This document shows, in pieces, positions 4,226 to 44,714 of a DNA stretch of 64,000 nt. The position numbers and the translations under genes were made by a program. Origin of the DNA: Candidatus Gottesmanbacteria bacterium (GTDB lineage Bacteria > Patescibacteriota > Microgenomatia > UBA10105 > UBA927); NCBI GenBank assembly GCA_963711735.1, contig CAVQFA010000003.1, positions 146,971 to 210,970 of the forward strand, read 5' to 3'. Each line of letters opens with the position of its first letter. The first letter of the stretch is position 1. The notes beneath the pieces are model-generated. The model saw nothing but the letters and a program-made list of their open reading frames with translations. It ran no database searches and was not told where the DNA came from.

Positions 4226-6865
4226 CTAATGTTGGTATATCAAAAACGTAGGTATAATTATGGTGTTTAGATGATTGGGAGAGAGATTGTGATTATAATA
4301 TTGTGTATAATAGTCTGCGTAGTCTCCTGTCGTTGGCGTAGAATACGCAGAATAATACAGTTGGTTGTTAATCTCAATCATTCTCCTTGTGTATTCCCAA
4401 TGATTAATTGTTATAAGATTCTCGTACGTTGGATTTACCATCCCACTCACCCAAAACATAATACTGTCAATAGTATCAGAGGCATACAATGACAGAATAT
4501 CAATGGGGTAATCATGGGTGTCATTATTAATGTCTCCGTATATTCCGGAAAGGTCGTGGCCATAATGGAGCACTGTGTTTTCGTCAGGCATTCCCCAGAC
4601 CGCAAAAAGGCCTGTTCCGCTATTTTCCTGAAATGGCCTCATGAAATTACAGGAAACCAGGCTTAAATCGCGATTATGTGTGGATCCGCTCTTTGTATAA
4701 AAAGGCCTGTCTGCTATCCAATCACCTGAGTTATATGGGTTAAACGTGTTTCCGCTTGCCAGGAGTTCGGCCTGAAAATATGACATCTCGCGCGTGGTGA
4801 GGGCGTCCATGTAGGCTTCGCGGTCGGCATCAGGCATGCTGTAAATGTCTTTTAGTCGCCCGCATGCTCCTATGTCTTCGGTAATGCCAACCGCCGGTTC
4901 TGCGGACTGCCAGACGCCGTATTCAGGCAGGTAAACCTTCAGCGGATTGCCAACTTCATCATACACAACAAGGTCATGGTATTCGTCGCTCCAGCGGAGC
5001 CTTTCAGTGTCTACTGTAAGTGTTGCTTCCTGCCCGCTTCCTGATGTGAAGTCCGTGTACCTGATCGTTGCAGTCCCGTCCGGGTTTATTGTCGCTGCGT
5101 CGTGAGCTTCCCATCGTGGCACACCCGGGTTCATCTCCCGTCCCGGCTCTGCCCGGACGGACAGCGTCGCGCTTCCGTCCCCGTTTGCGGTATAGCTGTA
5201 ATCATGGTTGTACCCTTTGCTTTCAAGGTCCGCAACAAGGGTATCGACGTATGGTACAACATCGAACTCCGGAAGGGCGCCGATTGCTTTAAGCGTTTCT
5301 TCATTCGGAAGAGTTGATGCCTCGAGGTTGTACCAAAACTCTCCTGATGCGGGATTTCTGAATGCAAGGAGGTTTCCGCCCCCGTCCCGCACGACTGCGG
5401 TCCATACGCCGTTTACAACCTCAAGCCTGCGCACCACCGACCTGTCATACCCGTCTGTAATGTGAATGAAGTGATCAAACGTCCCTTCTCTCATGTCTGC
5501 GGGGTTGTAAAGAAGCGTTTCCTGGCCTTCCTGTCCTGATGCAGCCCACAGAATCCCCCTGTTGGTAAATCCTCCGATTGTCCATTCTCCCTGCCCATCC
5601 TGAACGCCCGTAAGGAAAACATCAGTGTCACTTCTGATGCCATCGGGCGAAGCAACGATCGTATATCCCTGAACCACAAGCTCTGCGGCAACGGCATTGT
5701 ACTGTGCAATGACGTTGGGCGCTGCGGACTCGGGGTTGTTCGGGTCAATCGGGAAAAACACGCTGTCTATCCTTATGTCCTGCAGGTTTTCGCGCACCAC
5801 AACAACGGGCGTTGGGGGCGCTTCGGTCGGAGAAGTGTCTGTCGGTGGTCCGCCGGAAAGGGGAGTGGGCAACGCATACGTCGGAGGAATGGTTGGTATT
5901 ATATCAGTCGGCGGTGTGGTGGGAGTCATCTCCACAAGGGTTGCGTCCGGAGGAGTAGGAGTGAGAAACTCGACTATACCGGAACACGCAACGCTCCCAA
6001 GCCCAAGAGCCGTAATTGCAAGAACTGTCCTTGTCGCTCTGGATGATGAAAATGTCTCGTGTGTCTTGAAAACTTGAGCGCTGTCTGTTTTTACATCCAT
6101 GGCTTGAGACGGACGGACTCCGGCGCTTCCGAGGTTGCTGATATAAAGAGCACCCGATCGAAATCTACTTTTTTGTTCTGGTTCTTTATCCTGTGTGTGT
6201 CTTGCCACCGTCCTGGGAGCGTTTGTTATTTCGTTTAAACGCGAGACAACAAGCTCTTCAACGTCTTTTTGTGTCAATGATATATTATTTAAAGCGGCTG
6301 TTTCTACCTCAAACGCAACTTCGCTTGCTACCGCAGAAGGTATTGCAAGCCCTTGGGGCATTCTGTTTCGCGCGTTTTCCCAACTGAGAACGGAAGCCTG
6401 AAACTTGACGTTTGCAGCCGCTAGTTTGGCTTTTTTTAGTATGGTTTTCTTCAATATTTTTTCGCTTGTCCGGATGGAACCATTCCAACCATCAAGCACG
6501 CGCTTTGCGGCAAGAGATCTTGCCGACTGAATCATGTGCCGCGTAGCATCTTGAAAATATTGTTTTTGTTCCTCAGAAATCCGCTCGCCGTTCAGTTCCG
6601 ATAAATACACTTCGTCGGGATTAAAAACAATCTTGGATCCGATGTGTACAACCTGCGTTGTTGTAAAGAGGTTTCCGTCGTTGCCCCTCCACAAACACTT
6701 AGTAATGTGACTGTTTTCTTGTATTGCCTCGACAAGGTCTTGTGGTGTGTGAACATATACGGGCCGCCCGTGTTTCTGTTCCAAAGGCGGTTGAAAGCGC
6801 TCAGTTGATAAAATGCCTTGGTGTTGTGGTGCGCTTGCCGTGCCAGCCTCAATGTGTGAAAGCAT
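4226..6865 (-). CDS. large membrane-anchored surface protein with Pro/Thr-rich linker (hypothetical)
   Basis: 879-aa ORF. Central TM 'TVLAITALGLGSVACSGIVEFL' is followed by a 'TPTPPDATLV..TPTTPPTDIIPTIPPT' linker and a large C-terminal domain. Confidence 0.6.
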   Translation of the reverse strand: MLSHIEAGTASAPQHQGILSTERFQPPLEQKHGRPVYVHTPQDLVEAIQENSHITKCLWRGNDGNLFTTTQVVHIGSKIVFNPDEVYLSELNGERISEEQKQYFQDATRHMIQSARSLAAKRVLDGWNGSIRTSEKILKKTILKKAKLAAANVKFQASVLSWENARNRMPQGLAIPSAVASEVAFEVETAALNNISLTQKDVEELVVSRLNEITNAPRTVARHTQDKEPEQKSRFRSGALYISNLGSAGVRPSQAMDVKTDSAQVFKTHETFSSSRATRTVLAITALGLGSVACSGIVEFLTPTPPDATLVEMTPTTPPTDIIPTIPPTYALPTPLSGGPPTDTSPTEAPPTPVVVVRENLQDIRIDSVFFPIDPNNPESAAPNVIAQYNAVAAELVVQGYTIVASPDGIRSDTDVFLTGVQDGQGEWTIGGFTNRGILWAASGQEGQETLLYNPADMREGTFDHFIHITDGYDRSVVRRLEVVNGVWTAVVRDGGGNLLAFRNPASGEFWYNLEASTLPNEETLKAIGALPEFDVVPYVDTLVADLESKGYNHDYSYTANGDGSATLSVRAEPGREMNPGVPRWEAHDAATINPDGTATIRYTDFTSGSGQEATLTVDTERLRWSDEYHDLVVYDEVGNPLKVYLPEYGVWQSAEPAVGITEDIGACGRLKDIYSMPDADREAYMDALTTREMSYFQAELLASGNTFNPYNSGDWIADRPFYTKSGSTHNRDLSLVSCNFMRPFQENSGTGLFAVWGMPDENTVLHYGHDLSGIYGDINNDTHDYPIDILSLYASDTIDSIMFWVSGMVNPTYENLITINHWEYTRRMIEINNQLYYSAYSTPTTGDYADYYTQYYNHNLSPNHLNTIIIPTFLIYQH

Positions 6866-9669: not shown

Positions 9670-10683
9670 TCACTTCGAAGACGGTTGCCCCGAAACAAGC
9701 GCAGTTATCTGAACAGGCTCCGTTTCGACAACCCCTTTACCACGAATAACATAAATTGGTAAAAGACGCGTCTGATTTGAAGAATAATAGTATGCAACTT
9801 CAATGTCGGTAACGGATATGTTTTTCGGAGCAGTTTTTAACAGAACAGGTTGAGCATTAGAAGACCCCACTAGGATATTTGATATTACAGAATGCCCGAG
9901 CATCAGATTATTGATGGCGTCTTGTGCTGAAATAACGGGAATTATACCCTTTTCTTCCGTCATTTCCGGAAGAATATACACCATAAACCCTATCGGTTCC
10001 TGGTTTGTGTTGAAACGGACCCACGCAGACGGCAGCTCAGCGTCTTTTACATATACAGGAACTCCTTGTAAAGACGCTTTAAAATCTACCTGAGCAACCG
10101 TTGCTAATGCAGATTTTGTTGTTTGAGTGTTTCCGCCGGACCCCGACTGAAAATATGTCGTTTTGCTGACAGAATATTGCAGGGATGGAGACAATAATCC
10201 CAACCCTTTTAAAAAAGAAAGCGCTGAGCTTTCGAGCTCTCCGGGTGATCTCATCCCTTTGGTGGAAGAGGTTGTGTTATTGATAAATGACACTTCCTGC
10301 GGATCACCGACGGAAGATAATGACTTTTTTTCTTTTGAATATAACATCATTTGTCCCCTTGTAGATTCTATGATTTTTGGTTGTTCGGTAAACCCGAGAG
10401 CAGCAGCCACGCGAGACAGAAGAGACGAAGCGTCCTTTTTTGACAGCACATACGAAGGTACGGCTGTGGGAAGTTGTGGTGTCTGATCAATAGTATAAAG
10501 AGGAATGTTGTTGACAACAGGCGTTGGAAAACGTGGGCGTTCAGACGGAAGAACCGTCGGTCGCGGAGCATTTATGCCCGGCTTACTCTGTCGGCGTTGT
10601 CCCAACCACGCGTTTAATACCCCGCCCAATATAAGCGCTACAACAAAAAGCGCACCAAGAAGAATAAGCTGTTTTTTTTCCAT
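9670..10683 (-). CDS. N-terminally anchored extracytoplasmic protein, last gene of the T4SS-like operon (possible VirB8-like role)
   Basis: Single N-terminal TM 'LILLGALFVVALILGGVLNAWL' followed by a ~300-aa domain. Position after the M23 hydrolase gene in the operon. Confidence 0.4.
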   Translation of the reverse strand: MEKKQLILLGALFVVALILGGVLNAWLGQRRQSKPGINAPRPTVLPSERPRFPTPVVNNIPLYTIDQTPQLPTAVPSYVLSKKDASSLLSRVAAALGFTEQPKIIESTRGQMMLYSKEKKSLSSVGDPQEVSFINNTTSSTKGMRSPGELESSALSFLKGLGLLSPSLQYSVSKTTYFQSGSGGNTQTTKSALATVAQVDFKASLQGVPVYVKDAELPSAWVRFNTNQEPIGFMVYILPEMTEEKGIIPVISAQDAINNLMLGHSVISNILVGSSNAQPVLLKTAPKNISVTDIEVAYYYSSNQTRLLPIYVIRGKGVVETEPVQITALVSGQPSSK

Positions 10684-10689
10684 ATGTCT

Positions 10690-13359
10690 TTACGGACAAC
10701 CGGCAGGCAGAAACGAAAAATCCGCCCCGCGCAGCTCATAGTGTAAATGTATTCCCGGACACCAGGACTCCCCACAGCCGGATCCATACGTCGACCCCGT
10801 TGCGTCCATAGTGCCGATTTCTTCTCCGGCATTAATTACAATGGGTGGTGTAGAGGGGTCATTATCGTGGGCGCTGTCATACGCCGTTTTTACTCTCGGG
10901 TCCACGGTTAATAAATGTGCGTACATTGTATAAAAGTTTGAACCCTCCGCACTCTTTGCAACCAGTATGACAAAATTACCATAACTTCCGTTTTCAAACG
11001 TGTTTGCGGGTATACCGTCGTGATATTGGGCAACAAATCCATCATGAGACGCGTATATTGGCGTTCCTTCGGCGTTGGCGATATCATATGCGTTGGCGTT
11101 TGAGTGGCTGAATGATCCGCCGGGAGATTGGGTAATCGTTCCGCTGGCAGGGCACGATGTGATTGTTGCTATAGGCGGCTCACCCTCTCCTGTATACGCC
11201 CATGACACAGGCACGCTGCTCCATGGTGCTCCGGGAACTTCAGGGCCTCCAGGGCCTGCCCCGACGGGTGCAATAAGGGCTGCATCACGGGCTATCTCCT
11301 GTGGAATTGTCCCTCCTGTTACCGATGAAAGACCCGGAACAAGTCCCGTAGAGAATAAAACAACACAAGCGATGATGGCAAGAGTTACGACAATTGGACC
11401 CTTATCTTCTTTAGGGAGAGTGCGTGTGCCTGTAAAATACTCAATACCGGCTTTGATGTATCTACCAATGAGGGGAAAAGCCTCACCGGTTTTTAATTTA
11501 TTAATGAAAGATGATCCGGCCCGGACAACAACATCTCCGACAACAAAACCCACAATTGCCCCGACAGGCCCTCCAAGCCAACCTATGGCTGATCCTATGA
11601 GTTTACCTAATGCGGTTGAACCGATTTTTGCTGAGATTCCGGTAATGAAAGTTGTAACAACTTTTTTAATTGCTGTCCCGGACGTCGTTTTTCCTGCAAC
11701 GCTAACAATTTCTTGTGTGGCTTTTTTTCCTGCACCCTTTGCTGTCAGCCGGAATACCCACTGAATAATATTACCTGTATCAAGTCCGAGAGACGGTCTG
11801 TCAGTTGTTTTCCTGTAACTTGCTCCTGCAAAATACACACGCAGAAGCTCTACTGTGTATATGACGGAATACCGCTCCTGTACGACAGAAAATACCGGCA
11901 TACCCCCCGTACCTGCTCCGGGAACGGGAAATGCGTATGGGAACACCTTCCTCCCGAGAAACATTGTTTTCAGAAGGCCAGCCGCAGCAGGTTCCGCAAA
12001 ACCCATTGTCCGTGGACCGGTAAGGACAGACATGAGAACGTCATCAACGGCACCACGCAACCCTTCAAGTTTGGGCTTAGGAACGCCGGCTATTTGAACA
12101 GAACGGAGTAGATCCCGGAAATCTTTTGAACCGGCAAGACTTGTACCGACAAGCTCGGCTAAACGCTCAGGTTTTGAGATGATGGAGCGAAGAGTCTCAC
12201 CAATAACCGCAGATTGAACATACATCTGTGCTTTTTCAGGGAGCAAACGCATTATTGCATCCGCTGTTTTTGCAGCGGGCGACGGAGAAAGAGACCGGAA
12301 AAAGGGGACCGGTGCGGATGCGGCAAGCCTGCGCGCGGAGTCGCCGTCAAGAGAAAGAGCGCGGACGGAATCGACAACGCCAATAGACGCATCAATTATG
12401 TGAGAGACTTCTGTTCCCTGATATGACGGTTCGTCTGCGACGCTTTTTACGGCAGCATAATAAACACCCGCACTTTCTGACTTCTCGGCTCCTTCTTCGA
12501 GCGACAGACGGGTCTGAAAAATATCTTCCTTCGAAGGAATCCGGTTGGGAAAAGCAGAGCGTAAAACGCGCGCATGCGCAATAATTTCTTCTCCATATAC
12601 TTTTTTATCTTTTGGTGTATAAGGAGTAAGAACAGCCGCCTCAACATATCCGACGCCGGGAGTTTTAATTATGGTTTCCATTTCCTGCGTAACTTCTTTT
12701 GCCGCAGCCCTTACGATTGTTTGTGCAACGGGAGGAGTTTGTGTGTGGGTTTGATCCTGAATTGTCTGAATCGCTGTTTCGGAAAGAGCATAGCATAAAA
12801 CGTCCCGTTCGTTCTGACCCGGAGCGACCTTTTCCAGTTGTTGCAGAAGCTCTGCCTCCTCACGTTTTTTAAGTTCATCCGCCACCCCCTCAGGAAGGAC
12901 TTCTGCATCCGGATGAGCGCGCCGTTCTATTCGCAACCTGTTTATGTATGCATCAACAAGCCGCCGGACGGATTCTGCTTCTAACCCCCTTTGTTTAACA
13001 GTCAGCGTCCTTGCTTTTTCATATTCTTCCTGAATAAGAGCAAGCTCAGCCGTTGGCACATAACTTTCCACATGCTGTTCAGCAGCCTCTTCACTTTTAT
13101 GAATCGTCAGAAGCCTGGAATGTATCTTACCGGAAAAATCATTGAACGCACGCGTAAACGCTTCGTTGTCAAATGATAACGGAGTAGCGTCTGTTGTGAT
13201 GGCGGAATAAAATTCTTCGTACGCCCTCCGGATTTCCTCGTCGGTTTGGGTTTGCGCGTAAAGGATAAGCTTGAGAGCCGACACTCCCAAAGACGACGGG
13301 GTTTCCGCAAGAACAGCAAAATCCAGGGCTTTTTCGGAGATATCAGTTTGATCTGCCAT
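10690..13359 (-). CDS. large membrane protein with C-terminal M23 (LytM-type) peptidoglycan endopeptidase domain
   Basis: C-terminus 'GTPIYASHDGFV...GNFVIL...YAHL...AGEEIGTMDATGSTYGSG...PGIHLHYEL' matches M23 motifs. Central TM helices are preceded by a ~550-aa N-terminal domain. Confidence 0.8.
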   Translation of the reverse strand: MADQTDISEKALDFAVLAETPSSLGVSALKLILYAQTQTDEEIRRAYEEFYSAITTDATPLSFDNEAFTRAFNDFSGKIHSRLLTIHKSEEAAEQHVESYVPTAELALIQEEYEKARTLTVKQRGLEAESVRRLVDAYINRLRIERRAHPDAEVLPEGVADELKKREEAELLQQLEKVAPGQNERDVLCYALSETAIQTIQDQTHTQTPPVAQTIVRAAAKEVTQEMETIIKTPGVGYVEAAVLTPYTPKDKKVYGEEIIAHARVLRSAFPNRIPSKEDIFQTRLSLEEGAEKSESAGVYYAAVKSVADEPSYQGTEVSHIIDASIGVVDSVRALSLDGDSARRLAASAPVPFFRSLSPSPAAKTADAIMRLLPEKAQMYVQSAVIGETLRSIISKPERLAELVGTSLAGSKDFRDLLRSVQIAGVPKPKLEGLRGAVDDVLMSVLTGPRTMGFAEPAAAGLLKTMFLGRKVFPYAFPVPGAGTGGMPVFSVVQERYSVIYTVELLRVYFAGASYRKTTDRPSLGLDTGNIIQWVFRLTAKGAGKKATQEIVSVAGKTTSGTAIKKVVTTFITGISAKIGSTALGKLIGSAIGWLGGPVGAIVGFVVGDVVVRAGSSFINKLKTGEAFPLIGRYIKAGIEYFTGTRTLPKEDKGPIVVTLAIIACVVLFSTGLVPGLSSVTGGTIPQEIARDAALIAPVGAGPGGPEVPGAPWSSVPVSWAYTGEGEPPIATITSCPASGTITQSPGGSFSHSNANAYDIANAEGTPIYASHDGFVAQYHDGIPANTFENGSYGNFVILVAKSAEGSNFYTMYAHLLTVDPRVKTAYDSAHDNDPSTPPIVINAGEEIGTMDATGSTYGSGCGESWCPGIHLHYELRGADFSFLPAGCP

Positions 13360-13389: not shown

Positions 13390-15285
13390 CTATAATTTGT
13401 TCTGGGAAGTCTGTTCGACGGTAAAAATCGGGCGGGAGTTGTTTGTTTTTTTAGGTTGAATAATTTCCGGTGCGGGTATGGGTTCTTTCTTTTGAGGCAC
13501 AACCGTTTTTCTCTCCGCAATTTCCTGCGGTTTTGTCGTTGCTATGGCGTGTTCTTCGGGAGACGCGATGATCCGGACAGCCGCGTGAGCCGGGCCGGCA
13601 AAGAAAAGCCCTTCTCCGACGTCGGCAGAAAGAAGGAGGTGTTTTTCTCCCTCAGAAAGATAAAATATTTCCGCAACTTTATCTATTGCCGCTGAAGACT
13701 GTTTGAGCAGAAGCTGCATGCTTGAGTTTTGGATGATTGCCTTGCCGAGATCCTGTGACAGGAAATCTTCAACATCCTGGGTTATTGTTGTCACCCCGAG
13801 GTAATACTTGCGCGCGCGTTTGGCTATGGAGTTTAAAAATTGCGCTGAGTCGGGATACTTCATCATATACCAGGCCTCATCAACTATAAGGAGTCTCCGT
13901 TTAATGTCCCTTCGGATCCTGTTCCATATATAATCAAGGATGAGGTACATGGCGATAGGACGAAGTTCATCCTCAAGATCACGGATGGAAAAAACCGTAA
14001 GCTGATTATTGATGTTGACGTTGGTGTGTTGGTCAAATACACCGACAAGCGATCCTTTTACGAATTTTTCTATCCGGTCAGCAAGCCCCCGGGACACCGC
14101 ATCTTCCATACCGATGAGTGTTTTATATAAATCTTCTACCAAAGGAGGCTCGCGTGTATGGGTGGCCGGATCCGGCGTTATGCCTTTTTGCTTGTACGTG
14201 AGTATTAGAGCACGGTCAAGGATTGCATCTTCGCTCGGCGTAAGCTCGCCCATGACAACACGGAAAAACCCATGAAGCGACAACACTTTCTGGGAAAGTT
14301 CGCTTTCTCCGCTTATGCCTCCTGAGAGGGCAGTCAGATCAAAAGGATTTATTTTTGTTCCGGAGGAAAACGTAAACTGGATAAGAGTCCCTCCGAGAGC
14401 CTGGGTTAAAGGACCGTACTCATTTTCCGGATCAATGACGATAACCTCAGTGTTAAACATCATTGACCTGAGAATTTCAAGCTTAATGCAGTATGATTTT
14501 CCGGCACCGGATTTACCGAACACAACAGCGTTTGCGTTTTCAAGCGTAAAACGGTCAAAAATAACAAGAGATTCATTCCCCTCATTGATGCCGTAAAGGA
14601 TGCCCTCGTTTGCCGTCAGCTCTGATGTGGTGAATGGAAATGTAGTGGCAAGCGACGTGGTGTCCATATTGCGCGTAACAACAATCCTGTCCTGGGCCAT
14701 TGGAAGCGTTGTTTTAAATCCCTCTTCGGACTGCAGAAGAGTTTTTTTTGTCATAATCAGAAGTGAGGCGAGAGTTGCCTCAATCTGTTTTGTGGTTTTA
14801 TTAAGTTCCTCAATTGATTCAGCTGGAATGGTGATATAGAGTCCAAACTGGAAAAACCGTTCCGAGCCCTTGGCAAGCTCCTGTTGGAGAGAAAGCGCGT
14901 CCTCGAGAGCAACCTGTATGGAGGGTTCCACCACACGCCCGCGCTTGAAGTCCGACTGGATAGTGGCTTCCATTTCACCCACTTTCCGCTTGAGGTTTTC
15001 AAGAACCTCCTCAGAACGCGTCGGATAGATAAACATGGATATCTCGAGAGCATGGTTAAAAGAGATGATTGGCTCGAGCCAGTTGGCGCTTACGAACCTC
15101 GGGTACCCCGCAACAAAAAGTGTCCTGTGGTACTTTTCACCCACTTTTATATTGTCGAAATCTACCTCAATGGACGGAGGCGCGATAATGTCTGCTGTTG
15201 TCATCGGTCCGGTTGGTTCAGCTCCGGACGCGCTTTGTGTTTGATTGGGATTTATGATGGTGTCGAGCAGTTTTGGCAGGTTCAT
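13390..15285 (-). CDS. virB4: VirB4/TrbE/TraE-family type IV secretion ATPase
   Basis: Walker A 'VVFGKSGAGKSYCI', Walker B 'RRLLIVDEAWYMM'. N-terminal 'YHRTLFVAGYPRFVSANWLEPIISFNHALEISMFIYP' resembles Gram-positive VirB4 homologs. Confidence 0.8.
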   Translation of the reverse strand: MNLPKLLDTIINPNQTQSASGAEPTGPMTTADIIAPPSIEVDFDNIKVGEKYHRTLFVAGYPRFVSANWLEPIISFNHALEISMFIYPTRSEEVLENLKRKVGEMEATIQSDFKRGRVVEPSIQVALEDALSLQQELAKGSERFFQFGLYITIPAESIEELNKTTKQIEATLASLLIMTKKTLLQSEEGFKTTLPMAQDRIVVTRNMDTTSLATTFPFTTSELTANEGILYGINEGNESLVIFDRFTLENANAVVFGKSGAGKSYCIKLEILRSMMFNTEVIVIDPENEYGPLTQALGGTLIQFTFSSGTKINPFDLTALSGGISGESELSQKVLSLHGFFRVVMGELTPSEDAILDRALILTYKQKGITPDPATHTREPPLVEDLYKTLIGMEDAVSRGLADRIEKFVKGSLVGVFDQHTNVNINNQLTVFSIRDLEDELRPIAMYLILDYIWNRIRRDIKRRLLIVDEAWYMMKYPDSAQFLNSIAKRARKYYLGVTTITQDVEDFLSQDLGKAIIQNSSMQLLLKQSSAAIDKVAEIFYLSEGEKHLLLSADVGEGLFFAGPAHAAVRIIASPEEHAIATTKPQEIAERKTVVPQKKEPIPAPEIIQPKKTNNSRPIFTVEQTSQNKL

Positions 15286-16009: not shown

Positions 16010-17284
16010 TTATGTTTGATTTTGTCCGAATACTTCCTTGGCAAGTTTTTCCCTCGACAGCTCTTTTTGGCTTTTAGCAATAATCTCTATTGGAGGGAGC
16101 ACTGTACCGGAAAGTGTAATCTGTGCACGGTCGAACACAAACCGGTTTCTCGGATCTTCCACCTCGATAATATACGTGTTATTAGGCAGGGGGCTTGCGG
16201 CGGCAAACTGACCAAGGCGGTTTGTCTTAAGAGCACGAACCGGCACATCATCTTTATCCCGTACGGTAACCAGAACGCTTGGAAGCAAATTGTTTTCATG
16301 ATCCTTGATGATTCCCGTTACGACATTTGGAAACGTTGTGAGTTTCGGGAGTCCCGCCCGGATTGCGCTGTCCGGCGTTATGACATTAACCGATGGTTTT
16401 GAGGGCTGTTGCATTTCTTGTGCAACGCGGTTGGGTGTCTGCTGCGGTTTTTGTGTTTGTGCAGACGAAAGCTGGATACGGAGTTTTGTTATCTCGTCCT
16501 GGGTTTTGTTTTTATCCGTCAGAGCGCCCGTTAATTCTTTTTGAAGCTCTACGATACGCTGTTCGTTTTGTGTCTTTTTTTGCAGCTCTCCGCGAAGCGC
16601 AGAAAGTTCTTTTTTGAGAAGTTCCATCTCGGGATTTATTTCGGGAGTTTCCGCTTTCAGCGGGGTCGGTTCCGTCGGCACCTGTGTCTTATGAGTCGGA
16701 GGTAAAGGCGTCTTTACGCCTATCGGAGAAAAATTTTGAACACTCGGCATAGGCGTTGTTGTTGAAGGGGTTGTGCGTTTTACTTCAGTCTTTAGAGCCG
16801 GATTTTTGTTTTGCGTTGACGGAAAAAATCCCGGGAGCACTCCGGGAAAACGAGGTTGGGTTTGAGATGCTGATGGCGGAGGAAGGGTTGCCTCTTGTTT
16901 TGCAGAAGGTGTGTGATGTGTGACAGATCCCGCACTGTTACCCTGTGGTGGCTTGGTTGGAGATGCCTGCACAGGCTTTTGTGTCGGAGTCGGAACAACT
17001 TCGCGCTTCCACACATAGAGAGTCGGACTATAGATGCTCTTGATAAACGCGAGAATCCAGACATCCATCGGACGCTCTTCAATCGGAATAAACGCCAAAC
17101 CAAATCCAAGAAGAAACACCCCAACCCCGAGGGGGAAGGTAAAAATCACAGGGAGAGGAAGTTTATAGCATACATACCCGACAATGGCTCCGAGAGCTAA
17201 ATACCCGAACTGTTTGAGAGTCATGTCACCTATGAGGCGAAACTGAAAAGTAGTGACATTTTGCGGGACAGGATGTTGTTCCAT
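16010..17284 (-). CDS. membrane protein with 2 N-terminal TM, Pro/Thr/Gln-rich linker, coiled coil and C-terminal domain (VirB10-like architecture; hypothetical)
   Basis: 'LKQFGYLALGAIVGYVCYKLPLPVIFTFPLGVGVFLLGFGLAFIPI', then a P/T/Q-rich linker, then coiled coil 'ELLKKELSALRGELQKKTQNEQRIVELQKEL'. First gene of the minus-strand operon. Confidence 0.5.
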   Translation of the reverse strand: MEQHPVPQNVTTFQFRLIGDMTLKQFGYLALGAIVGYVCYKLPLPVIFTFPLGVGVFLLGFGLAFIPIEERPMDVWILAFIKSIYSPTLYVWKREVVPTPTQKPVQASPTKPPQGNSAGSVTHHTPSAKQEATLPPPSASQTQPRFPGVLPGFFPSTQNKNPALKTEVKRTTPSTTTPMPSVQNFSPIGVKTPLPPTHKTQVPTEPTPLKAETPEINPEMELLKKELSALRGELQKKTQNEQRIVELQKELTGALTDKNKTQDEITKLRIQLSSAQTQKPQQTPNRVAQEMQQPSKPSVNVITPDSAIRAGLPKLTTFPNVVTGIIKDHENNLLPSVLVTVRDKDDVPVRALKTNRLGQFAAASPLPNNTYIIEVEDPRNRFVFDRAQITLSGTVLPPIEIIAKSQKELSREKLAKEVFGQNQT

Positions 17285-17426: not shown

Positions 17427-19598
17427 ATGGATTCGCGAATACTCCTTGAAGTGAAAAACTCCCGCGATTCGGAGGAACCTGTTGTTGCTATGGAGCAGGC
17501 CCTTTCCGCCCTTGGATCGGGACACGGACGCAGGAATTTTCTGTCAGAACTTCTGTTTGGGTTGCACGACGATAAATGGATGTGTCTCGAGATAATTGTT
17601 GCCTCATCACGCATACATTTTTTCGTTTCACTCCCTCCGCATTTGGAGACTGCATTTGTAAGTCAGATAACCGCGGTATATCCCAAAATTACCCTTACTC
17701 CCGTGGGGGAGTATATAGAGAAACTTCTGTTATTGCCGCATGCGTCGGGGCAACTGGTGTTCGGAGCACCGTTTTACTACCCCCTCAAAACACATAAAGA
17801 CGTTGCAGACCTCGATACGCTGGCAGGCATCGTCGGCCAATTATCCCGTGTGCCCGACGACCAGTGCGTGCTTGTACAGTACCGGATATCTCCAGCAGGA
17901 TCATCATGGCGTCATACGGCCCAGTCAATCATAAGCAAGGGTATTCAGGATATGTCCTACCCCGAACGGACCAAAGCACACCCTCAGGCCCGCATCATCG
18001 AGAGAAAAGCAAGCGAAACCGGATATGAAACAGGCGTGAGAATTGTAGCAACCGCTCCGGATAAGGAACGCGCAGAAATACAGATGCAGTCGGTAGCCGG
18101 AGCATTCGGAATATTTTCGCTCGGGGAGGGAAACAGTTTGCAGCTCAAAGAACCGTTGTTTTGGCAGAAAACAAAGCTCGACAAAGCAATTACCCAAAGG
18201 AGCGGTTACCTTATCCCACGTAACCACGTTTTTTCCGTTTCCGAGCTTGCAACCCTCTGGCATCCTCCCGGACTTGCGCTTGCTGCGATAAAAAATATCG
18301 CGTGGGGAACGCGTTTGTCCGGCGAAGCACCGGAAAACCTACCCATTACAGTGGGTAAAGAAGAGGAAGATGCAAAAATAAACTTTTTTGCCCGTACGGA
18401 ATATAAAAACAAGCTTTCGACATTCGGTATTAAAAAAGAAGACAGGAGAAAACATGTCTATATGGTCGGAAAAACCGGCACCGGCAAATCAACCGTTATT
18501 GCCAACATGGCGATTAACGACATGAGACACGGAGAGGGTCTTGCGGTTGTTGACCCGCACGGGGATTTATGTGAAACGATTCTTGACTACGTGCCGTCAT
18601 TCCGGATCAATGATGTGGCATACCTCAATCCTTCCGATGTAGAATATCCGTTTCACCTCAATCCTCTTGAAGTGAAAAATTCCACTTACCGCGAGCTTGT
18701 AACTTCCGGAATCGTGTCGATTTTTTATAAACTGTACCACTACAGCTGGGGACCGAGGCTCGAGTATATTTTACGCAACGCCATCTCGACGCTTCTGACG
18801 GTTCCCGATTCTACGCTCCTTTCCGTGCCGGACATCCTCACCAACGATGCGTTCCGTGCAAAAACAATTGAAAAGCTTGATGACAGGGTGCTCAAAAATT
18901 TCTGGCTGAACGAGTTTAACAAGATGACGCCTCAGATCCGCATTGAATCCATTTCACCGATTCTCAACAAGGTCGGGCAATTTCTCACGTCCCAAACCAT
19001 CCGGAATATAGTCGGAAGTCCGGTGTCTACAATTGACCTTGAAACAATGATGAACGAAGGGAAAATCGTGATAGTTAATCTGTCGCAGGGTAAACTCGGT
19101 GAGGACTCAAGTGCGCTTCTCGGGTCCATGATCATCACTAAGTTTCAGCTTGCTGCTATGAACAGGGTGTATACGACGGAAAAAGAAAGACACGATTTTT
19201 ATCTCTACGTAGATGAGTTTCAGAACTTTGCAACAAACTCATTCATCAAAATTCTTTCCGAGGCGCGAAAGTACAGACTTAATCTCATGCTTGCCAATCA
19301 GTATATCGGGCAGATTGATGAGGAAGTACAAAAAGCGATATTCGGAAACGCAGGGTCTCTTATATCCTTCGGAGTCGGTGCGGCTGACGCACGGCTCCTT
19401 TCACGCGAGTTCGGTACGAAGTATACGGAAGATGAACTCGTTGCTATGGGAAATTATGAAATAGCACTCAAACTTTCTATCGACAATCACACATCCCATC
19501 CTTTTTCCGGTATGACGCTGCCGTTGCCGAAAAGCAAAAACCAAAACAGGGAAAAGGTCATCCGTGCAAGCCGCGAACGGTACTGCAAAAAGATATAA
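17427..19598 (+). CDS. VirD4/TraG/TraD-family type IV coupling-protein-like ATPase (T4SS DNA-binding domain family)
   Basis: Walker A 'YMVGKTGTGKSTVIANM', 'DFYLYVDEFQNFAT' and 'LSEARKYRLNLMLANQYIGQ'. No obvious N-terminal TM helices. Confidence 0.75.
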   Translation: MDSRILLEVKNSRDSEEPVVAMEQALSALGSGHGRRNFLSELLFGLHDDKWMCLEIIVASSRIHFFVSLPPHLETAFVSQITAVYPKITLTPVGEYIEKLLLLPHASGQLVFGAPFYYPLKTHKDVADLDTLAGIVGQLSRVPDDQCVLVQYRISPAGSSWRHTAQSIISKGIQDMSYPERTKAHPQARIIERKASETGYETGVRIVATAPDKERAEIQMQSVAGAFGIFSLGEGNSLQLKEPLFWQKTKLDKAITQRSGYLIPRNHVFSVSELATLWHPPGLALAAIKNIAWGTRLSGEAPENLPITVGKEEEDAKINFFARTEYKNKLSTFGIKKEDRRKHVYMVGKTGTGKSTVIANMAINDMRHGEGLAVVDPHGDLCETILDYVPSFRINDVAYLNPSDVEYPFHLNPLEVKNSTYRELVTSGIVSIFYKLYHYSWGPRLEYILRNAISTLLTVPDSTLLSVPDILTNDAFRAKTIEKLDDRVLKNFWLNEFNKMTPQIRIESISPILNKVGQFLTSQTIRNIVGSPVSTIDLETMMNEGKIVIVNLSQGKLGEDSSALLGSMIITKFQLAAMNRVYTTEKERHDFYLYVDEFQNFATNSFIKILSEARKYRLNLMLANQYIGQIDEEVQKAIFGNAGSLISFGVGAADARLLSREFGTKYTEDELVAMGNYEIALKLSIDNHTSHPFSGMTLPLPKSKNQNREKVIRASRERYCKKI

Positions 19599-21034: not shown

Positions 21035-24000
21035 ATGGCAAAATCTATGAGTGAACGGGAACCAACATATACACCGGTAGCAAAAACCATAGAACGCATA
21101 TTAGTGGCAATTGCTAAGCCTGAAAACGCTGAGAAGGTGAAAAAACTTCGAAAAGAAGAAGCCCTGAAAAAAGCACAACAAAGACAGAAAGAAATTTTCA
21201 GCCGTTTTAATAGGGAAAAAAACACGACAAACCCGGAACAAAAAGGAATAAAGGATTATGGGGAAGAGGAAATCAGAAAAGCAAAAGAGATAACGGAAGA
21301 ACTGAAAAGCAGCGGCCAGCACGCATCAAGCAATAAGTGGGTAAGAGAAAACAGATATGGAATTTCTTCAACTCCCGACACTCTTTCCACAGCCAAAATA
21401 CAACTCGAGACAGCGAGAAAAATTGCAGGACATGATAATAGTCCTCTCGGAAACATAAACCCCGAGGACCTGCAGCACAGCTCTGTGGCGGCGTATGCGC
21501 TGGCAGAATGGTCCATGCTTCCTCCTGAATTGCGTAAAAATCCGAACGTCGCGCTTACACAGGCAGCCCGTCTGGCAGCCTCCGTTAACGCAGATATGAG
21601 CGTTGAGGAACTCAACGAAATCAGGAGGGTATTGAACGCCTTTAAAAGTGAAATACGCACGCTCCGCGATGACCCTGATCGCAAAGACGGATTTAACATT
21701 GAGGACCGGAAACTAGACAATATTCTTTCCGAAATGGTCGGAGGTATTGTGACGGACGACAAATTTGTCCTTTTTGATCCCGCAACAGAATTTACCGGAA
21801 CGCTTTCACTGGATCAATCAAATTTAAAAACCCTACTTCAGGATTATAATATACAATTAGACATTTTGGATCCAAACGATGACGAAGCCATAAAATTATT
21901 AGAAAAATTCAGACTAGAGCTTGCTGGAGGAACATACAGAAAGATAGATACAGACCCAAAAAACAAAAGCGGAACCCGAACTGTTCCCATTGACAGAGAT
22001 AAAGCAAGACCCTACATTGATAAGCTTAAAACAAAAATCGAAGAATTACAGGAAAAACAAAAAATAATGCGCCAGGAGCAGTATATCCAAGAAAGGGAAG
22101 CGCAGGAGAGCCAGATGTGGTTAAAACCAAGCGAGGAACTGCATTTCGGAGAGAATCCGGAGGAAGTGTTGGAAGGGTGGATGCGGCGAATATACGCAGA
22201 AAGATCCATGGGAACAGAAGACGTGGCAAATATGAGACTTAGACTGTTCCAATCATTTCTTGTTGGCGATACATGGAAAGCTCTCTATATTAAATTCCAT
22301 CCTGCTGAATTTCCTAAGGGAATGTCGCAGGCAAGGATAGATTCACACATTGAGAGCGTGAGGGAAAGATTGTTTGAATTTACAGAGAAATCAATGATGC
22401 TGAAATTTGCGGCATCATCCATTTGGGATGGGAGTAAAAATTTTGAACAGGCAGTTAACGTTTTACGGAGAGTAGGATCCCGCGGTTGGGAGATTGTATA
22501 TATGGGTAATAACGGTATGAACGGGAAAGCATACGAGATACTTGAAGAAGAACTGTCAATAGTAACAACCAATCCAAAACCGGGAGAAATGCCCCTCCGT
22601 TTATCTTCGGAACTTCTGGAGCGTGCGCTACAAAACACACGCAATCGTATTGAACGGAACAAAACGCAGTATAAAGAAATATTCGGTAAAAAAGTTACCA
22701 CCGAAGACATCAACCATTTTGTCCGTGCGGGTGAGGTGCTTGCCGACGTCAGGCAGAAAGTCGTTCTTGCTGTTATGCGCGGCAGGGGCCCCGGGGAGAG
22801 ACCGCTGTCTGACATAGAGCCTCCTTCATCATCATTTAGAAGCACCAGCTACGCGGAAAATATCGCCGCTGTTATGGACTGGTACCGGTATGGACCGGAA
22901 AAATGGGGATATTTAACTGAGGGGGCCAAACGCGAACTTGAGTTTTCCTGCGAATTCATGGGAACAATCAGCGGGTTTGACAGCACAGTTGATTTAGAGA
23001 TAGCAAAACTGCGCGCCGACGGATCGTATCGCACCGAACGGGATAAAACATTGAAAGAGCGGTGGGGTGAACACTATGAGAATTGGAAAGAGACGAAACA
23101 CATAGATATGCACCTCGCATCATTTGTAGCAGGAACAGGATTATCCGGTGAAATCGCAGATCAGGAATACCGCCGGTTGCTCATGGTCGGGTATGGCAAA
23201 AAACGGCTCGGAGAACTCCTTGAAATGTATGATGTAGATTCCAGTGGTTGGCGCATAGCAATGGTCCTCCAGGAAAACGTACGGTTTTTCAAGGACGCGG
23301 ACACTCGGGCGCTGGGTTACTGGCTCAGATACGCAGGTAACGACTTTTTACGGGCTGAGGCAGGAGAAGCAGATGATGTTTTCCGAAACGGCGCTCACAA
23401 TGCCCAAAAACAATTAGATGAAGTACGGTTTATAGAAAACGGAGTAACGCTTAAAGCCGAGTGGAATGATGATTTCAGCGTATATAACGTTCTGAAACGT
23501 ATCGGAAAATATGAAAGTCACTGGAACGGATTATGGTTATATGAGAAGGGAAACGAAGAGTTTGTTAACTGGTGGAACAGTGCACCTGTTCAGGAGGCAG
23601 CGCGGAAGCTGACGGGATTAGCGGGTGACGTGGATTATATTCAGGCATACCGGTCAGCTATAGAAAAACATTCGTTGATTATAGGTATAGGTGATAAAAC
23701 AAGTCTTCCTGTTGTCGATTATTCCGAAGGAATTGCCGGTTTAACTCCGGAACAAAAACGGGCAGTATCAAAGGCGTTCGGATGCAGCGTTAACCAGGTT
23801 GATACAAATCAGGCAGTACAGAACCACTTTTCATTTATGGGCGAGCTTTCCAAACAAGTGCTGAAAGACGAAGAACTTATGGCATTTAAAGACCCCCGGT
23901 ACCGCCAGTATTTCAAACGGACGCAATTTACCGGAGACGCGCGTCTCGGGATGATAGAGGACCTTGAACGTTTGCCGGAAGGAGCACCGGGAAGCACGGT

Positions 24001-26304: not shown

Positions 26305-26625
26305 TCATGGTATTATCGTAATTGAAAATTTCGTTACGTCAACACCCGTGAATTCTTTGATAAGAAGAAGGATGAGATACGCAACTGCTATAATCACAAG
26401 CCCGATGATTGCTCCGGTTATCGTACCTTTTGCCTTTTCAAGCTTTTTCTGGTCGCCTCCCGCAAAGAGGAAGTTGAACCCTCCCATGACGAGCATGAGA
26501 AACAGTCCGATACCCGCAATGGCGATAATAAAACGGAGAACGTTTTCAAAAAGCGGCTCGAGACACGCAATCTGCGCCACATCATCGCCATTTGGAAGAC
26601 AACTACTCCAGTCAACAAACGCCAT
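26305..26625 (-). CDS. VirB2/TrbC-like T4SS pilin paralog 1
   Basis: Two hydrophobic helices flank the family motif 'MGGFNFLFAGGDQKKLEKAKGTITGAIIGLVIIAVAYLIL'. Own promoter and an upstream terminator. Confidence 0.7.
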   Translation of the reverse strand: MAFVDWSSCLPNGDDVAQIACLEPLFENVLRFIIAIAGIGLFLMLVMGGFNFLFAGGDQKKLEKAKGTITGAIIGLVIIAVAYLILLLIKEFTGVDVTKFSITIIP

Positions 26626-26704
26626 ATATTCTCATTATCACCCAGAAAATATATTTATACAAGAACACGGTAGGGTACATAATGTAGAGAATGCCACCAA
26701 AAAC

Positions 26705-26733
26705 CCCGCTTTTGGCGGGGTTTATCGAAATTC
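26705..26733 (-). terminator. Rho-independent terminator after pilin gene 2
   Basis: 'aaaaaCCCCGCttttgGCGGGGttt' is a GC hairpin flanked by T/A runs on both strands. Confidence 0.55.
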
Positions 26734-26741
26734 ACAAAAAA

Positions 26742-27116
26742 TTATGGTGTATACGGAAGAGGTATCTTTACTCCTGATCCCAAAAGCGTAATACCAAGGA
26801 ATTGCTGTACCAGCATCATGATTGCCCACGCTGCTCCGACAATAATAAGTCCGACAACTGCATGCGTGATTTTGTTGCGTGCTGCCTCCATACCGGACTT
26901 GTCGCCGCCCGCGGTGATCCATTGAATTCCGCCGAGAATGAGATAAAGAAACGCAAGAAGCGCAGCTATGATCATAAGCAAACCGACAGCGGCTCCGATA
27001 AGCTCACCCAGACTTGTGATCTTAATAAGTTCCGTGTTTCTGGTAACTGCTATTGTGCTGGGATCGTCCTGTGCATATATAACTGGTGCTAAGAAATTCA
27101 TACGTTCCTCCTTCAA
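26742..27116 (-). CDS. VirB2/TrbC-like T4SS pilin paralog 2
   Basis: 'LILGGIQWITAGGDKSGMEAARNKITHAVVGLIIVGAAWAIMMLV'. Confidence 0.7.
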   Translation of the reverse strand: MKEERMNFLAPVIYAQDDPSTIAVTRNTELIKITSLGELIGAAVGLLMIIAALLAFLYLILGGIQWITAGGDKSGMEAARNKITHAVVGLIIVGAAWAIMMLVQQFLGITLLGSGVKIPLPYTP

Positions 27117-27207
27117 TGTATACTATAGTTGATTATATCGTACCTCTAATTGTGTCGCAACTCTTCCTACTTTGTCAATACACGCAATATGAGATCAGGT
27201 GTACACA

Positions 27208-27627
27208 TCAGCACGGTTGTCCCGGTGCGCACGTTGGGGCGGGTACTCCCCCGGGTCCGACATTTGATGGAGAAAGAACGCTGGGAAAAGGAATGTTCGG
27301 GAAAGAAATTCCAAAAAATGTGCCAAGAAAAAGCATAATTGCCCAGACGGATCCCACAATGAGAAGGCCGACAATTGCATGCGTTATTTTATTCCGTGCA
27401 TCCTCTAGCTTCGCTTTGTCTCCGCTTGCTGTAATCCATGATATACCGCCAAGAAGGAGATATACGAGGGCAAAAATGAACGAGAATATAAAAAACGCAG
27501 CAATAAAAGCACCCAATAAAGATCCAAAAACTAAACCTCCGGTTGTATATTCACCCGGATTTCCGCTTCCGCCCAAAAACGAAGGTAAAACAGGATTTTT
27601 CAGTTGTGCTAAAAGATGTGTGCTCAT
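27208..27627 (-). CDS. VirB2/TrbC-like T4SS pilin paralog 3
   Basis: 'LLLGGISWITASGDKAKLEDARNKITHAIVGLLIVGSVWAIMLFL'. Confidence 0.7.
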   Translation of the reverse strand: MSTHLLAQLKNPVLPSFLGGSGNPGEYTTGGLVFGSLLGAFIAAFFIFSFIFALVYLLLGGISWITASGDKAKLEDARNKITHAIVGLLIVGSVWAIMLFLGTFFGISFPNIPFPSVLSPSNVGPGGVPAPTCAPGQPC

Positions 27628-27630
27628 ATA

Positions 27631-28065
27631 TTATGGTGTTCCTCCGCTTCCGGGCAGCTCAAGCTGTTGTATTACCGTTGCCGGATCTATAAGCGTGTCA
27701 AACCCGAAGAACATCCCGACAAGCGCGAGTATCGCCCAACCCGCAATAACGATGACAAGACCGATAAACGCGTTCGTTATTCTGTCTCTTGCCTGTTGGA
27801 GTTTTCCCTTGTCTCCGCCTGAGGTAAGCCAGTTCAAGCCTCCCACAAGGAACTGGAAGATAAACCAGATAAGTGCAGCAATTGTCATGATGCCGATGAT
27901 GGATGATACGACCTGAGTGACTTTGGTAAGTGCACTGACCGCACCGGCACTTCCTCTGCCTATAACATCGGACCCGATGTTTCCAAACGGACCTAACCCC
28001 CCTCCGCCAATCGTTCCGAGGTCAGTGCCAACAGGATCTGCTGCATAAATGTGTTCTGATATCAT
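27631..28065 (-). CDS. VirB2/TrbC-like T4SS pilin paralog 4
   Basis: 'FLVGGLNWLTSGGDKGKLQQARDRITNAFIGLVIVIAGWAILALV'. The gap to paralog 3 is 3 nt. Confidence 0.7.
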   Translation of the reverse strand: MISEHIYAADPVGTDLGTIGGGGLGPFGNIGSDVIGRGSAGAVSALTKVTQVVSSIIGIMTIAALIWFIFQFLVGGLNWLTSGGDKGKLQQARDRITNAFIGLVIVIAGWAILALVGMFFGFDTLIDPATVIQQLELPGSGGTP

Positions 28066-28068
28066 AAA

Positions 28069-28437
28069 TTAGTTACCCGGACCATATATTTTCGGATTCA
28101 GCATGAATCCGGGATCTCCGAATATCAGGTATCCGAAAAGTGCTGCCAGCACAAATGATCCGATGAGAATGACAAGTCCGATAAGCGACTGCCAGATTCT
28201 CGCCCAGGCAGCAGTGAGCGCCTTTGCATCACCTGCCGCCGTCATATACTGATATCCGGCTATTATAATATTAAAAAAAGCAAACGCCCCCGTCACGGAA
28301 AATATAAGGCGGAGAACGTTAGTCAGAAGCGCAATGATACCCGTGTTATAAGAGCCATACGACGCGTTCATGGGGTTTGTAACAGTGCCGATAACTGATG
28401 ATGCGTCTGCAAGCACTTGTATATAATTCATAGACAA
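28069..28437 (-). CDS. VirB2/TrbC-like T4SS pilin paralog 5 (more divergent)
   Basis: 'IIAGYQYMTAAGDAKALTAAWARIWQSLIGLVILIGSFVLAALFG'. Confidence 0.65.
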   Translation of the reverse strand: MSMNYIQVLADASSVIGTVTNPMNASYGSYNTGIIALLTNVLRLIFSVTGAFAFFNIIIAGYQYMTAAGDAKALTAAWARIWQSLIGLVILIGSFVLAALFGYLIFGDPGFMLNPKIYGPGN

Positions 28438-28447
28438 TAAATATGTA

Positions 28448-28759
28448 CTACGGCAATGGCGCCGAAAGGAGCGTCATGCCTGTTAATTTTTCCAATATTT
28501 GGACGATCCAGTACGATACGACAATCAGGATAAGACCCAGAACCGCTCCTGTTATCGTTTTTTGTCCCTGTTCGAGCTTTTTGGTATCACCGGCTCCAGC
28601 GCCCATTATAACGCCGAATCCGCCCAACACCAAGAGGAGGAAGGTGAGAACCGCCGCTAACATAAAAGCATTTTTTACGATGATGTTCACGAGATCACCA
28701 AATGATGCAATCGGAGACGGAGCAACGGTGCCAAGATCCAGAGCAAAAACACGGTTCAT
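28448..28759 (-). CDS. VirB2/TrbC-like T4SS pilin paralog 6 (first in operon)
   Basis: 'LLVLGGFGVIMGAGAGDTKKLEQGQKTITGAVLGLILIVVSYWIVQILEKL'. Confidence 0.7.
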   Translation of the reverse strand: MNRVFALDLGTVAPSPIASFGDLVNIIVKNAFMLAAVLTFLLLVLGGFGVIMGAGAGDTKKLEQGQKTITGAVLGLILIVVSYWIVQILEKLTGMTLLSAPLP

Positions 28760-44543: not shown

Positions 44544-44629
44544 TGGAGAGGTCGCATAGTTGGTCTAGTGCAGCAGTTTACTAAACTGCCGTAACGCAAG
44601 TTACCGCGAGTTCGAATCTCGCCCTCTCC
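44544..44629 (+). tRNA. type II tRNA (Ser-like acceptor) with apparent anticodon ACU
   Basis: Acceptor GGAGAGG/CCTCTCC, anticodon stem-loop 'GCAGT TTACTAA ACTGC', long variable arm, T-arm 'GCGAGTTCGAATCTCGC'. The anticodon assignment is unusual. Confidence 0.5.
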
Positions 44630-44714
44630 GCCGGGTTATCTAGCCACATTTTTAATCACAAGAGAAAGATACCCCTTCCCATCCGGAAAGCATAATAATT
44701 GATATAATGACAGC

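Follow-up and report, generated by a model that had tools for sequence, protein, structure and literature searches.

The T4SS Operon and the 889-aa Gene

The stretch analysed here, hereafter the window, comprises 64,000 nucleotides (nt) of Candidatus Gottesmanbacteria contig CAVQFA010000003.1 (assembly GCA_963711735.1, positions 146,971 to 210,970) and is the origin region of the chromosome of a Microgenomatia bacterium (candidate phyla radiation, CPR/Patescibacteria). It contains genes of a type IV secretion system (T4SS), and this study concerns one of them, which encodes a protein of 889 amino acids (aa) with a C-terminal M23 peptidase domain. Five minus-strand genes form an operon that is convergent on dnaN/dnaA, in the following order:

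16010..17284, minus strand: prgI/virB3-like gene, first of the operon, 424 aa (Pfam PF12666), with two transmembrane (TM) helices
15290..16001, minus strand: trsD-like gene, resembling the N-terminus of VirB4, with a 1-nt frameshift
13390..15285, minus strand: virB4, 631 aa, CD1110 family (NCBIfam NF045971, 402.6 bits with a cutoff of 325; Pfam P-loop_TraG)
10690..13359, minus strand: the 889-aa gene
9670..10683, minus strand: last gene of the operon, encoding a 337-aa bitopic protein in the position of PrgL, with a TM helix at aa 5-23

The 889-aa gene is an uninterrupted open reading frame (ORF) of 889 codons with its ATG at 13359 and its stop at 10690-10692. The first-pass annotation, made from the sequence alone, had called the same ORF without stating its strand. 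The start is credible because it is the first start codon downstream of a stop, GAGAGTGG precedes the ATG and the N-terminus ‘MA..’ is common to homologues. A gap of 30 nt separates the gene from virB4 upstream and one of 6 nt from the last operon gene downstream, in line with its earlier placement between these two, and nothing argues against its co-transcription with virB4.

The encoded protein consists of an N-terminal part of ~650 aa with helices and a glycine zipper, one strong TM helix, a Pro/Gly-rich linker and the C-terminal M23 domain. These segments map to the minus strand as follows:

12610..13359, minus strand: aa 1-250, variable, acidic, long-helix region without a signal peptide or any hydrophobic segment (14% median identity in the family)
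11935..12609, minus strand: aa 251-475, best-conserved part of the N-terminal module, all-alpha (conservation peak at aa 320-470)
11620..11934, minus strand: aa 476-580, poorly conserved, Gly/Lys-rich, leading to the membrane (low family occupancy)
11500..11619, minus strand: aa 581-620, conserved glycine-zipper segment (GxxxGxxxG, GGP turn; Kyte–Doolittle hydropathy 1.6-1.8), both flanks positive
11326..11397, minus strand: aa 655-678, single strong TM helix (Kyte–Doolittle hydropathy 2.75), a predicted signal-anchor with N-in/C-out orientation
11155..11325, minus strand: aa 679-735, Pro/Gly-rich linker, predicted extracellular (sequence APVGAGPGGPEVPGAPWSSVPVSW), without secondary structure in the model
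10693..11154, minus strand: aa 736-889, M23 domain (Pfam PF01551) with H752, D759, H815, H871 and H873 and the flanking Cys736/Cys888

Peptidase_M23 (aa 756-878) was the sole Pfam match of the whole protein, and neither Pfam nor NCBIfam gave a match to SLT, lysozyme, CHAP or NlpC/P60. This agrees with the earlier assignment to the endopeptidases and not to the lytic transglycosylases, as far as domain content indicates.

The M23 Domain

The M23 domain scored 37.9 bits against a gathering score of 28.7, and 40 of the 48 members of the family described below match the same Pfam domain (best E 2.9e-22). The C-terminal profile of the family matched solved M23 peptidases with E-values down to 2.6e-17, among them DipM, ShyA, Csd3/TagE, zoocin A, LytM, lysostaphin, gp13 (3csq) and LasA (3it5). 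When the full-length AlphaFold2 model was searched with Foldseek, the sole significant matches were zoocin A (5kvp, E 3.4e-4, probability 1.00) and the LytM domain of EnvC (4bh5). The predicted local distance difference test (pLDDT) score of the M23 domain in this model is about 50-82.

Canonical M23 motifs had been annotated in the last ~150 aa. This holds for the domain as such, for the HxH motif (H871-L-H873) and for the catalytic H815 (in ‘YAHL’), which are canonical and invariant in the family alignments, but not for the first motif. HMMER alignments place Ala755 at the canonical HxxxD histidine position, and the invariant His752 lies seven residues before the invariant Asp759, so that the motif reads H(x)6D. 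Elsewhere in the family the spacing varies between 6 and 13. Membership of M23 calls for H(x)nD and HxH with variable n, and active enzymes with longer spacing include gp13 with H(x)7D and LasA with H(x)12D (PMC9662197). His752 is the predicted zinc ligand of the first motif. Since H815, H871 and H873 are invariant and variable H(x)nD spacing is known from active enzymes, the domain is most likely an active zinc endopeptidase, unlike the LytM domains of PrgK, EnvC and NlpD, which are degenerate. A conserved Cys pair, C736/C888, brackets it.

Membrane Region and Topology

By hydropathy, the 889-aa protein has no N-terminal signal peptide or TM helix. The ‘TM bundle’ of the first-pass annotation was overstated, because hydropathy reveals only a glycine-zipper stretch (aa 587-620) and the one strong TM helix at aa 655-678. 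Among the 48 family members, no hydrophobic element is recovered as consistently as a strong TM helix 50-90 aa ahead of the catalytic domain. The N-terminal flank of this helix is positive (KEDKG in the 889-aa protein) and its C-terminal flank neutral or acidic. Of the 48 members, 36-40 keep the zipper glycines G589, G597 and G600, and two match the Pfam family Gly-zipper_Omp. The zipper segment is probably a hairpin, re-entrant or peripheral, on the inner side of the membrane.

The simplest reading of the topology is that the N-terminus lies inside, the chain crosses the membrane once at aa 655-678, and the M23 domain is held outside on a Pro/Gly tether of ~55 aa. This N-in/C-out arrangement is suggested by the lack of a signal peptide, the strongly positive flanks of the zipper, the charges on either side of the TM helix, the conserved Cys pair and the need for the enzyme to act outside. 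The N-terminal domain is accordingly predicted to be intracellular. A VirB6/TrbL-type channel subunit was considered and rejected, as it requires at least five TM helices; the 889-aa protein has one plus the zipper, and a separate polytopic gene is conserved nearby.

The N-Terminal Module

The N-terminal part had been described as hydrophilic, Glu/Arg-rich and without a recognisable domain, and this is borne out: the first ~200 aa contain 13.5% Glu and 7% Arg, and Pfam found no significant family in aa 1-700 even with E-values up to 5 allowed. NCBIfam and PDB-sequence searches of the same region returned nothing, and a profile of the N-terminal module likewise found nothing among PDB sequences. 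The full-length AlphaFold2 model, built on an alignment of six sequences, was of low quality, with a mean pLDDT of 46. It predicts aa 11-472 to be helical almost throughout, with low confidence for the helices of aa 1-250 (H11-232) and a pLDDT below 35 for aa 476-580, where a net positive charge precedes the hydrophobic region. A separate model of aa 250-480 (231 aa) was better (pLDDT 71.9, predicted TM-score 0.55) and contained 13 helices. The conserved residues of this core are F354, D367, G405, S411 and L417. Foldseek gave no significant match of this model to the PDB (best E 0.7, TM-score ≤0.25) or to BFVD (best E 0.07), where the top of the list was rich in tape-measure proteins. Profile and structure searches thus matched the N-terminal module to no known enzyme.

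A Microgenomatia-Wide Family Linked to virB4

When aa 1-700 were searched exhaustively with HMMER against 1.84 billion representative proteins, only five relatives emerged (E 1.5e-9 to 1e-4), all of them 770-864 aa long and with the same layout. Three word-indexed protein searches, with the single protein, the N-terminal alignment and the 48-member alignment, found essentially only the query or unrelated canonical M23 proteins. More homologues were reached through their neighbour. A VirB4 scan of the genome collection yielded 80 loci with 59-81% VirB4 identity, where named almost all from Candidatus Gottesmanbacteria, Woesebacteria, Shapirobacteria, Chisholmbacteria or the ‘Microgenomates/Patescibacteria group’, and 81 loci were mined with an iterated hidden Markov model (HMM). 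Full-length homologues were found in 51 of these 81. A model built from aa 1-575 alone still recovers 41 orthologues, which makes the N-terminal homology independent of the M23 domain. The N-terminal HMM found no paralogue of the module elsewhere in the window.

In 46 of the 51 loci the homologue is the next gene after virB4; the gaps run from -23 to +25 nt (median 5), with one outlier of 468 nt. In the remaining five, from genomes in which virB4 abuts dnaN, it lies upstream of prgI. These rearranged loci (L049, L058, L059, L062 and L067, several from Chisholmbacteria) encode, at about 3.1-6.7 kb of each locus, homologues of 832-1114 aa with more hydrophobic segments. The order PrgI–TrsD–VirB4–889-aa gene–337-aa gene, convergent on dnaN/dnaA, recurs across Microgenomatia, in Gottesmanbacteria and relatives, and the locus of relative P0002 is syntenic with the window gene for gene under independent gene calling.

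This linkage bears on the question of whether the gene encodes a housekeeping endopeptidase for wall remodelling or division that merely adjoins T4SS genes near the origin. M23 endopeptidases commonly serve growth and division (PMC9662197), and the locus adjoins dnaA/dnaN, where many core genes sit. However, the gene overlaps or nearly abuts virB4 in 46 genomes, and where virB4 abuts dnaN it has followed the T4SS cluster and lies upstream of prgI. Furthermore, the 650-aa N-terminal part is unlike the ShyA, MepM and EnvC types and lacks their Pfam accessory domains, and the catalytic class differs between orthologues (see below). A housekeeping role therefore seems very improbable.

Conserved across the family are the helical core at aa ~320-470, the glycine zipper, the one strong TM helix, the M23 residues and the Cys pair. 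Sequence identity to the 889-aa protein is low: its median is 14-17% over the first 475 aa, 21% over the membrane region and 36% over the M23 domain; in the same genomes, identities are 59-81% for VirB4, mostly 40-76% for TrsD, mostly 61-68% for VirD4 and 34-70% for DnaA. The 337-aa protein encoded downstream diverges as fast (21-27% identity) and has BLAST-detectable homologues in 12 loci.

Likeness to Phage Tape-Measure Proteins

Tape-measure proteins with an M23 domain resemble the 889-aa protein in combining a long helical region, a Gly-rich hydrophobic segment and M23, and PHROG_167 (‘tape measure’) matches aa 493-625 weakly (23.5 bits, E 1.9e-5). Homology was rejected, since outside M23 neither an hhalign comparison with a tape-measure-like M23 protein nor a tblastn search of 50,697 phage records showed similarity. 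There is no significant sequence or fold similarity to these proteins outside that domain, nor are there phage genes near the 889-aa gene. Across the family, the tape-measure PHROG matches probably come mainly through M23, with match positions available for the window protein only, and we treat the PHROG_167 and BFVD likenesses as generic similarity between long helical, Gly-rich sequences.

These observations matter for a host-directed role, in which the 889-aa protein, or its M23 domain and zipper, would be presented at or exported through the T4SS as a weapon or translocon that breaches the wall and membrane of the host bacterium where the epibiont touches it, much as phage tail tape-measure or tail-tip lysins do. 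Such a role could explain why an enzyme that must act outside has no signal peptide, and the rapid divergence of the N-terminal module and the 337-aa protein is as expected of host-facing proteins. The T4SS of Saccharibacteria is moreover essential for epibiotic growth and lacks a relaxase. The PHROG_167 match and the tape-measure proteins that dominate the BFVD list, none of them significant, would fit here as well. On the other hand, the strong signal-anchor helix with its positive-inside flanks predicts stable insertion in the membrane of the producer, the hhalign and tblastn searches and the fold matches (TM-scores 0.3 or less) offer no phage relationship beyond M23, the family-wide PHROG matches are probably mainly due to that domain, and the counterpart on plasmid pCF10, with the same position and architecture (see below), is a cis-acting hydrolase. 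We therefore regard a host-directed role as unlikely.

Exchange of the C-Terminal Domain

Not all orthologues carry M23. Amidase_2 takes its place in one (L015, 12109-15048), the papain-like Peptidase_C39_2 in another (L004, 11969-14398), and a third gives a weak SLT_3 hint at this position (L013, 6236-8242). Five members have no recognisable C-terminal domain. All members without M23 retain the N-terminal module and the TM helix. The catalytic ‘warhead’ is thus interchangeable: M23 in most members, Amidase_2 or a C39-like domain elsewhere, and an M15-like domain in the Saccharibacteria counterpart, which is recognised by position and architecture. This suggests that, at the site of the T4SS, cutting the wall as such counts for more than the choice of bond. 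The pattern that recurs right after virB4 is that of a large N-terminal part joined to a membrane anchor and to a peptidoglycan-cleaving domain of one kind or another.

The same exchange could be taken to mean that the protein is a structural scaffold of the T4SS, with an M23 domain that only binds peptidoglycan or activates another hydrolase, as LytM does in PrgK, EnvC and NlpD. Orthologues with another C-terminal domain still keep N-terminal module, zipper and TM helix, five orthologues lack a recognisable enzyme domain, the LytM domain of PrgK is regulatory and not catalytic, and VirB6/VirB8 homologues, for which such a scaffold would make up, were reported to be scarce in Microgenomatia (PMC12102498). 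Against this, the M23 members show little or no variation at the five zinc/catalytic residues, which degenerate LytM regulators have lost (PMC9662197). The swapped-in domains also belong to hydrolase families (Amidase_2, C39-like), and the cluster has its own polytopic VirB6-like gene. It is thus improbable that the protein serves only as a scaffold. A related proposal, which seems rather unlikely to us, is that N-terminal module, zipper and TM helix constitute a Patescibacteria-specific core subunit of the T4SS, a connector from cytoplasm to wall that replaces the VirB8/VirB10-type scaffolds apparently missing from these systems and onto which warheads (M23, Amidase_2, C39-like, M15-like) would have been repeatedly grafted. 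Under this proposal, the rapid divergence that the module shares with the adjacent 337-aa protein might reflect exposure of a part of it to the host cell envelope, or even its insertion there, during epibiosis.

Other T4SS Genes and Features of the Window

Further T4SS genes lie outside the operon:

17427..19598, plus strand: virD4-like coupling-protein gene, divergent (Pfam TraG-D_C, TrwB_AAD_bind)
24703-25973, minus strand: conserved polytopic VirB6-like gene, split into ORFs of 298 aa and 169 aa in different frames
26305..28759, minus strand: six tandem genes for VirB2-like T4SS pilins of 103-144 aa (Pfam PF18895)

The cluster has the layout published for the chromosomal, MPF_FATA-derived T4SS of Patescibacteria (Quiñonero-Coronel et al., 2025, PMC12102498): its VirB4 is of the monoderm type, TrsD is encoded separately, PrgI/VirB3 and an array of VirB2-like pilins are present, and dnaA/dnaN lie nearby. 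The published systems also have no relaxase gene in their vicinity. Among the ORFs of the window that were scanned, a scan that covered part of it, no relaxase domain was found. Of the six pilins, four pass the gathering score of 26.6 bits with 27.9-40.6 bits, and two fall short of it at 23.1 and 21.3 bits. The array belongs to the same system as the operon, and VirB2-like pilin arrays have been reported for Microgenomatia and Saccharimonadia (PMC12102498).

The VirB6-like gene has no Pfam match. In relatives it encodes 470-518 aa with an N-terminal signal or TM helix followed by 6-8 further TM helices. In the trsD-like gene, one extra base near 15856 splits the reading frame into ORFs of 86 aa and 192 aa; six relatives read ...TTAVNFGLLSEKEQEAII... 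through this gene in a single ORF of 219-237 aa. Because the site is not a homopolymer, the frameshift could be either real or an assembly error. The 337-aa protein is predicted to have one N-terminal TM helix, a Pro-rich linker and an extracellular domain of ~250 aa; it has no Pfam match, and its family profile has no match among PDB sequences.

The virD4-like gene is complete, is divergent from prgI and encodes 723 aa without a TM helix by hydropathy. A second VirD4-like sequence at the left edge of the window (45-842, plus strand) is a C-terminal fragment (TraG-D_C). Three very large ORFs flank the T4SS genes at 912-2900 (minus strand, 662 aa), 4226-6865 (minus strand, 879 aa) and 21035-24685 (plus strand, 1216 aa). 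None of them matched Pfam, NCBIfam or PHROG. The largest, of 1216 aa, carries a hydrophobic anchor at its C-terminus, and two related loci encode weak homologues of it. Elsewhere in the window, ARAGORN predicted a tRNA-Ser with anticodon ACT (unusual position 36) at 44545-44632 (plus strand), beside tRNA-Ser(GCT) and tRNA-Ser(TGA), and a transfer-messenger RNA at 41696-42110 (plus strand) with an unusually long tag peptide of 32 residues.

Counterparts in Known Systems

The first-pass annotation had suggested a wall-punching enzyme of the T4SS, analogous to VirB1 and PrgK, and comparison with PrgK of Enterococcus faecalis plasmid pCF10, a VirB1-like hydrolase of the DELTA class, supports this in gene order and architecture. 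PrgK has 871 aa and consists of an intracellular N-terminal domain (aa 1-253, poorly predicted by AlphaFold2), a TM helix (aa 254-274), a LytM, an SLT/muramidase and a CHAP domain (PMC11323569), and it is essential for conjugation (PMC11323569; PMC12857230). The pCF10 order PrgI, PrgJ (VirB4, CD1110 family), PrgK and PrgL is matched in the window, with the 889-aa gene in the place of prgK. The two proteins are alike in size (871 versus 889 aa) and in having, by prediction for the 889-aa protein, an intracellular N-terminal domain, one TM helix and M23/LytM as the first extracellular domain. They differ in that the intracellular part is ~650 aa in the 889-aa protein and 253 aa in PrgK, thus about 2.5 times longer, and in that M23 is the sole extracellular domain here and has kept its catalytic residues, whereas PrgK carries SLT/muramidase and CHAP in addition. 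In PrgK the muramidase is the active enzyme and LytM is degenerate or regulatory (PMC12857230; PMC11323569). No sequence similarity was detectable: hhalign of the family profile against PrgK gave a probability of 0.7% (E 0.078) over 24 columns in the LytM region, and the 337-aa protein showed no similarity to the VirB8-like PrgL. As judged from this comparison, the 889-aa protein is the positional and architectural counterpart of PrgK.

A second counterpart is SEML1_0007 of Ca. Southlakia epibionticum (Saccharibacteria), a protein of 1113 aa that is encoded directly downstream of VirB4 and is essential according to transposon sequencing (Wang et al., 2023, PMC10633639; PMC12102498). Only a C-terminal Hedgehog/DD-peptidase (M15-like) domain was recognised in it, and Foldseek places a CPR ‘Peptidase M23 domain-containing protein’ among its neighbours (PMC10633639). 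Compared by architecture and position, it shares with the 889-aa protein an origin-proximal T4SS (cluster SEML1_0006-0019), the place after VirB4 and a C-terminal wall peptidase, but its fold is M15-like and not M23. SEML1_0006 (lysozyme, lysozyme and Cys-peptidase), which follows SEML1_0007, has no counterpart in the window.

With regard to the M23 domain itself, phi29 gp13 and LasA/beta-lytic protease share the upstream His at longer spacing in the first motif, and keep the HxH and the third His. Gp13 is a phage tail-tip lysin and LasA-type enzymes are secreted and bacteriolytic; both lack the membrane anchor, the helical N-terminal module and the T4SS context. Like other VirB1-like hydrolases, the 889-aa protein is encoded inside a T4SS cluster beside virB4 and is predicted to be TM-anchored with its enzyme domain outside. 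It does not have the glycosidase (SLT/muramidase) and CHAP or NlpC/P60 domains that are usual in such hydrolases of monoderms (ALPHA, BETA and DELTA classes; PrgK, TraG of pIP501, Orf14/CwlT).

Proposed Role in Type IV Secretion

Taken with the conserved linkage and the T4SS context, these counterparts lead us to favour, with reasonable though limited confidence, the reading that the 889-aa protein is the dedicated peptidoglycan hydrolase subunit, of the PrgK/VirB1 type, of a chromosomal, origin-proximal T4SS. The enzyme would be translated together with VirB4 and inserted N-in/C-out, with the TM helix as signal-anchor. Its N-terminal module would remain cytoplasmic or lie against the inner side of the membrane, while the M23 domain would be displayed outside on its flexible tether. 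The module would probably hold the enzyme at the membrane complex of VirB4, TrsD and PrgI and might gate its activity, and the M23 domain would cut peptide cross-links of the cell's own wall where the T4SS channel and the VirB2-like pilus pass.

Several points weigh against this dedicated hydrolase. Firstly, the enzymatic activity, localisation and interactions of the family are inferred. The LytM domain of PrgK is not an active hydrolase, and an M23 fold therefore need not mean cutting activity, although the catalytic residues are intact here. Secondly, the glycine-zipper segment could alter the topology. Thirdly, docking by the N-terminal module is pure inference, since the module resembles neither PrgK nor anything solved, and docking on a highly conserved ATPase would be unexpected for a module that diverges so fast (14-17% median identity, compared with 59-81% for VirB4 in the same genomes). 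Lastly, both the trsD-like and the VirB6-like gene are frameshifted, so that the T4SS of this genome might be decaying or mis-assembled.

Significance

Patescibacteria account for much of bacterial diversity, and their one member amenable to genetics cannot live on its host cell without the T4SS. Peptidase and lysozyme homologues directly downstream of virB4 had already been noted in one Saccharibacterium. As far as the literature cited here shows, the Microgenomatia-wide family with its interchangeable catalytic domains and its N-terminal module has not been described. It extends the PrgK-type anchored hydrolase with an intracellular domain to an enzyme that has a peptidase only. The role of the large, fast-evolving N-terminal module is a potentially valuable question, and the family provides a handle for finding what this cytoplasmic module binds. 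As a class-wide, virB4-coupled family that joins N-terminal module, glycine zipper and TM helix to an exchangeable wall hydrolase, it is a concrete candidate for the wall-opening step of the T4SS.

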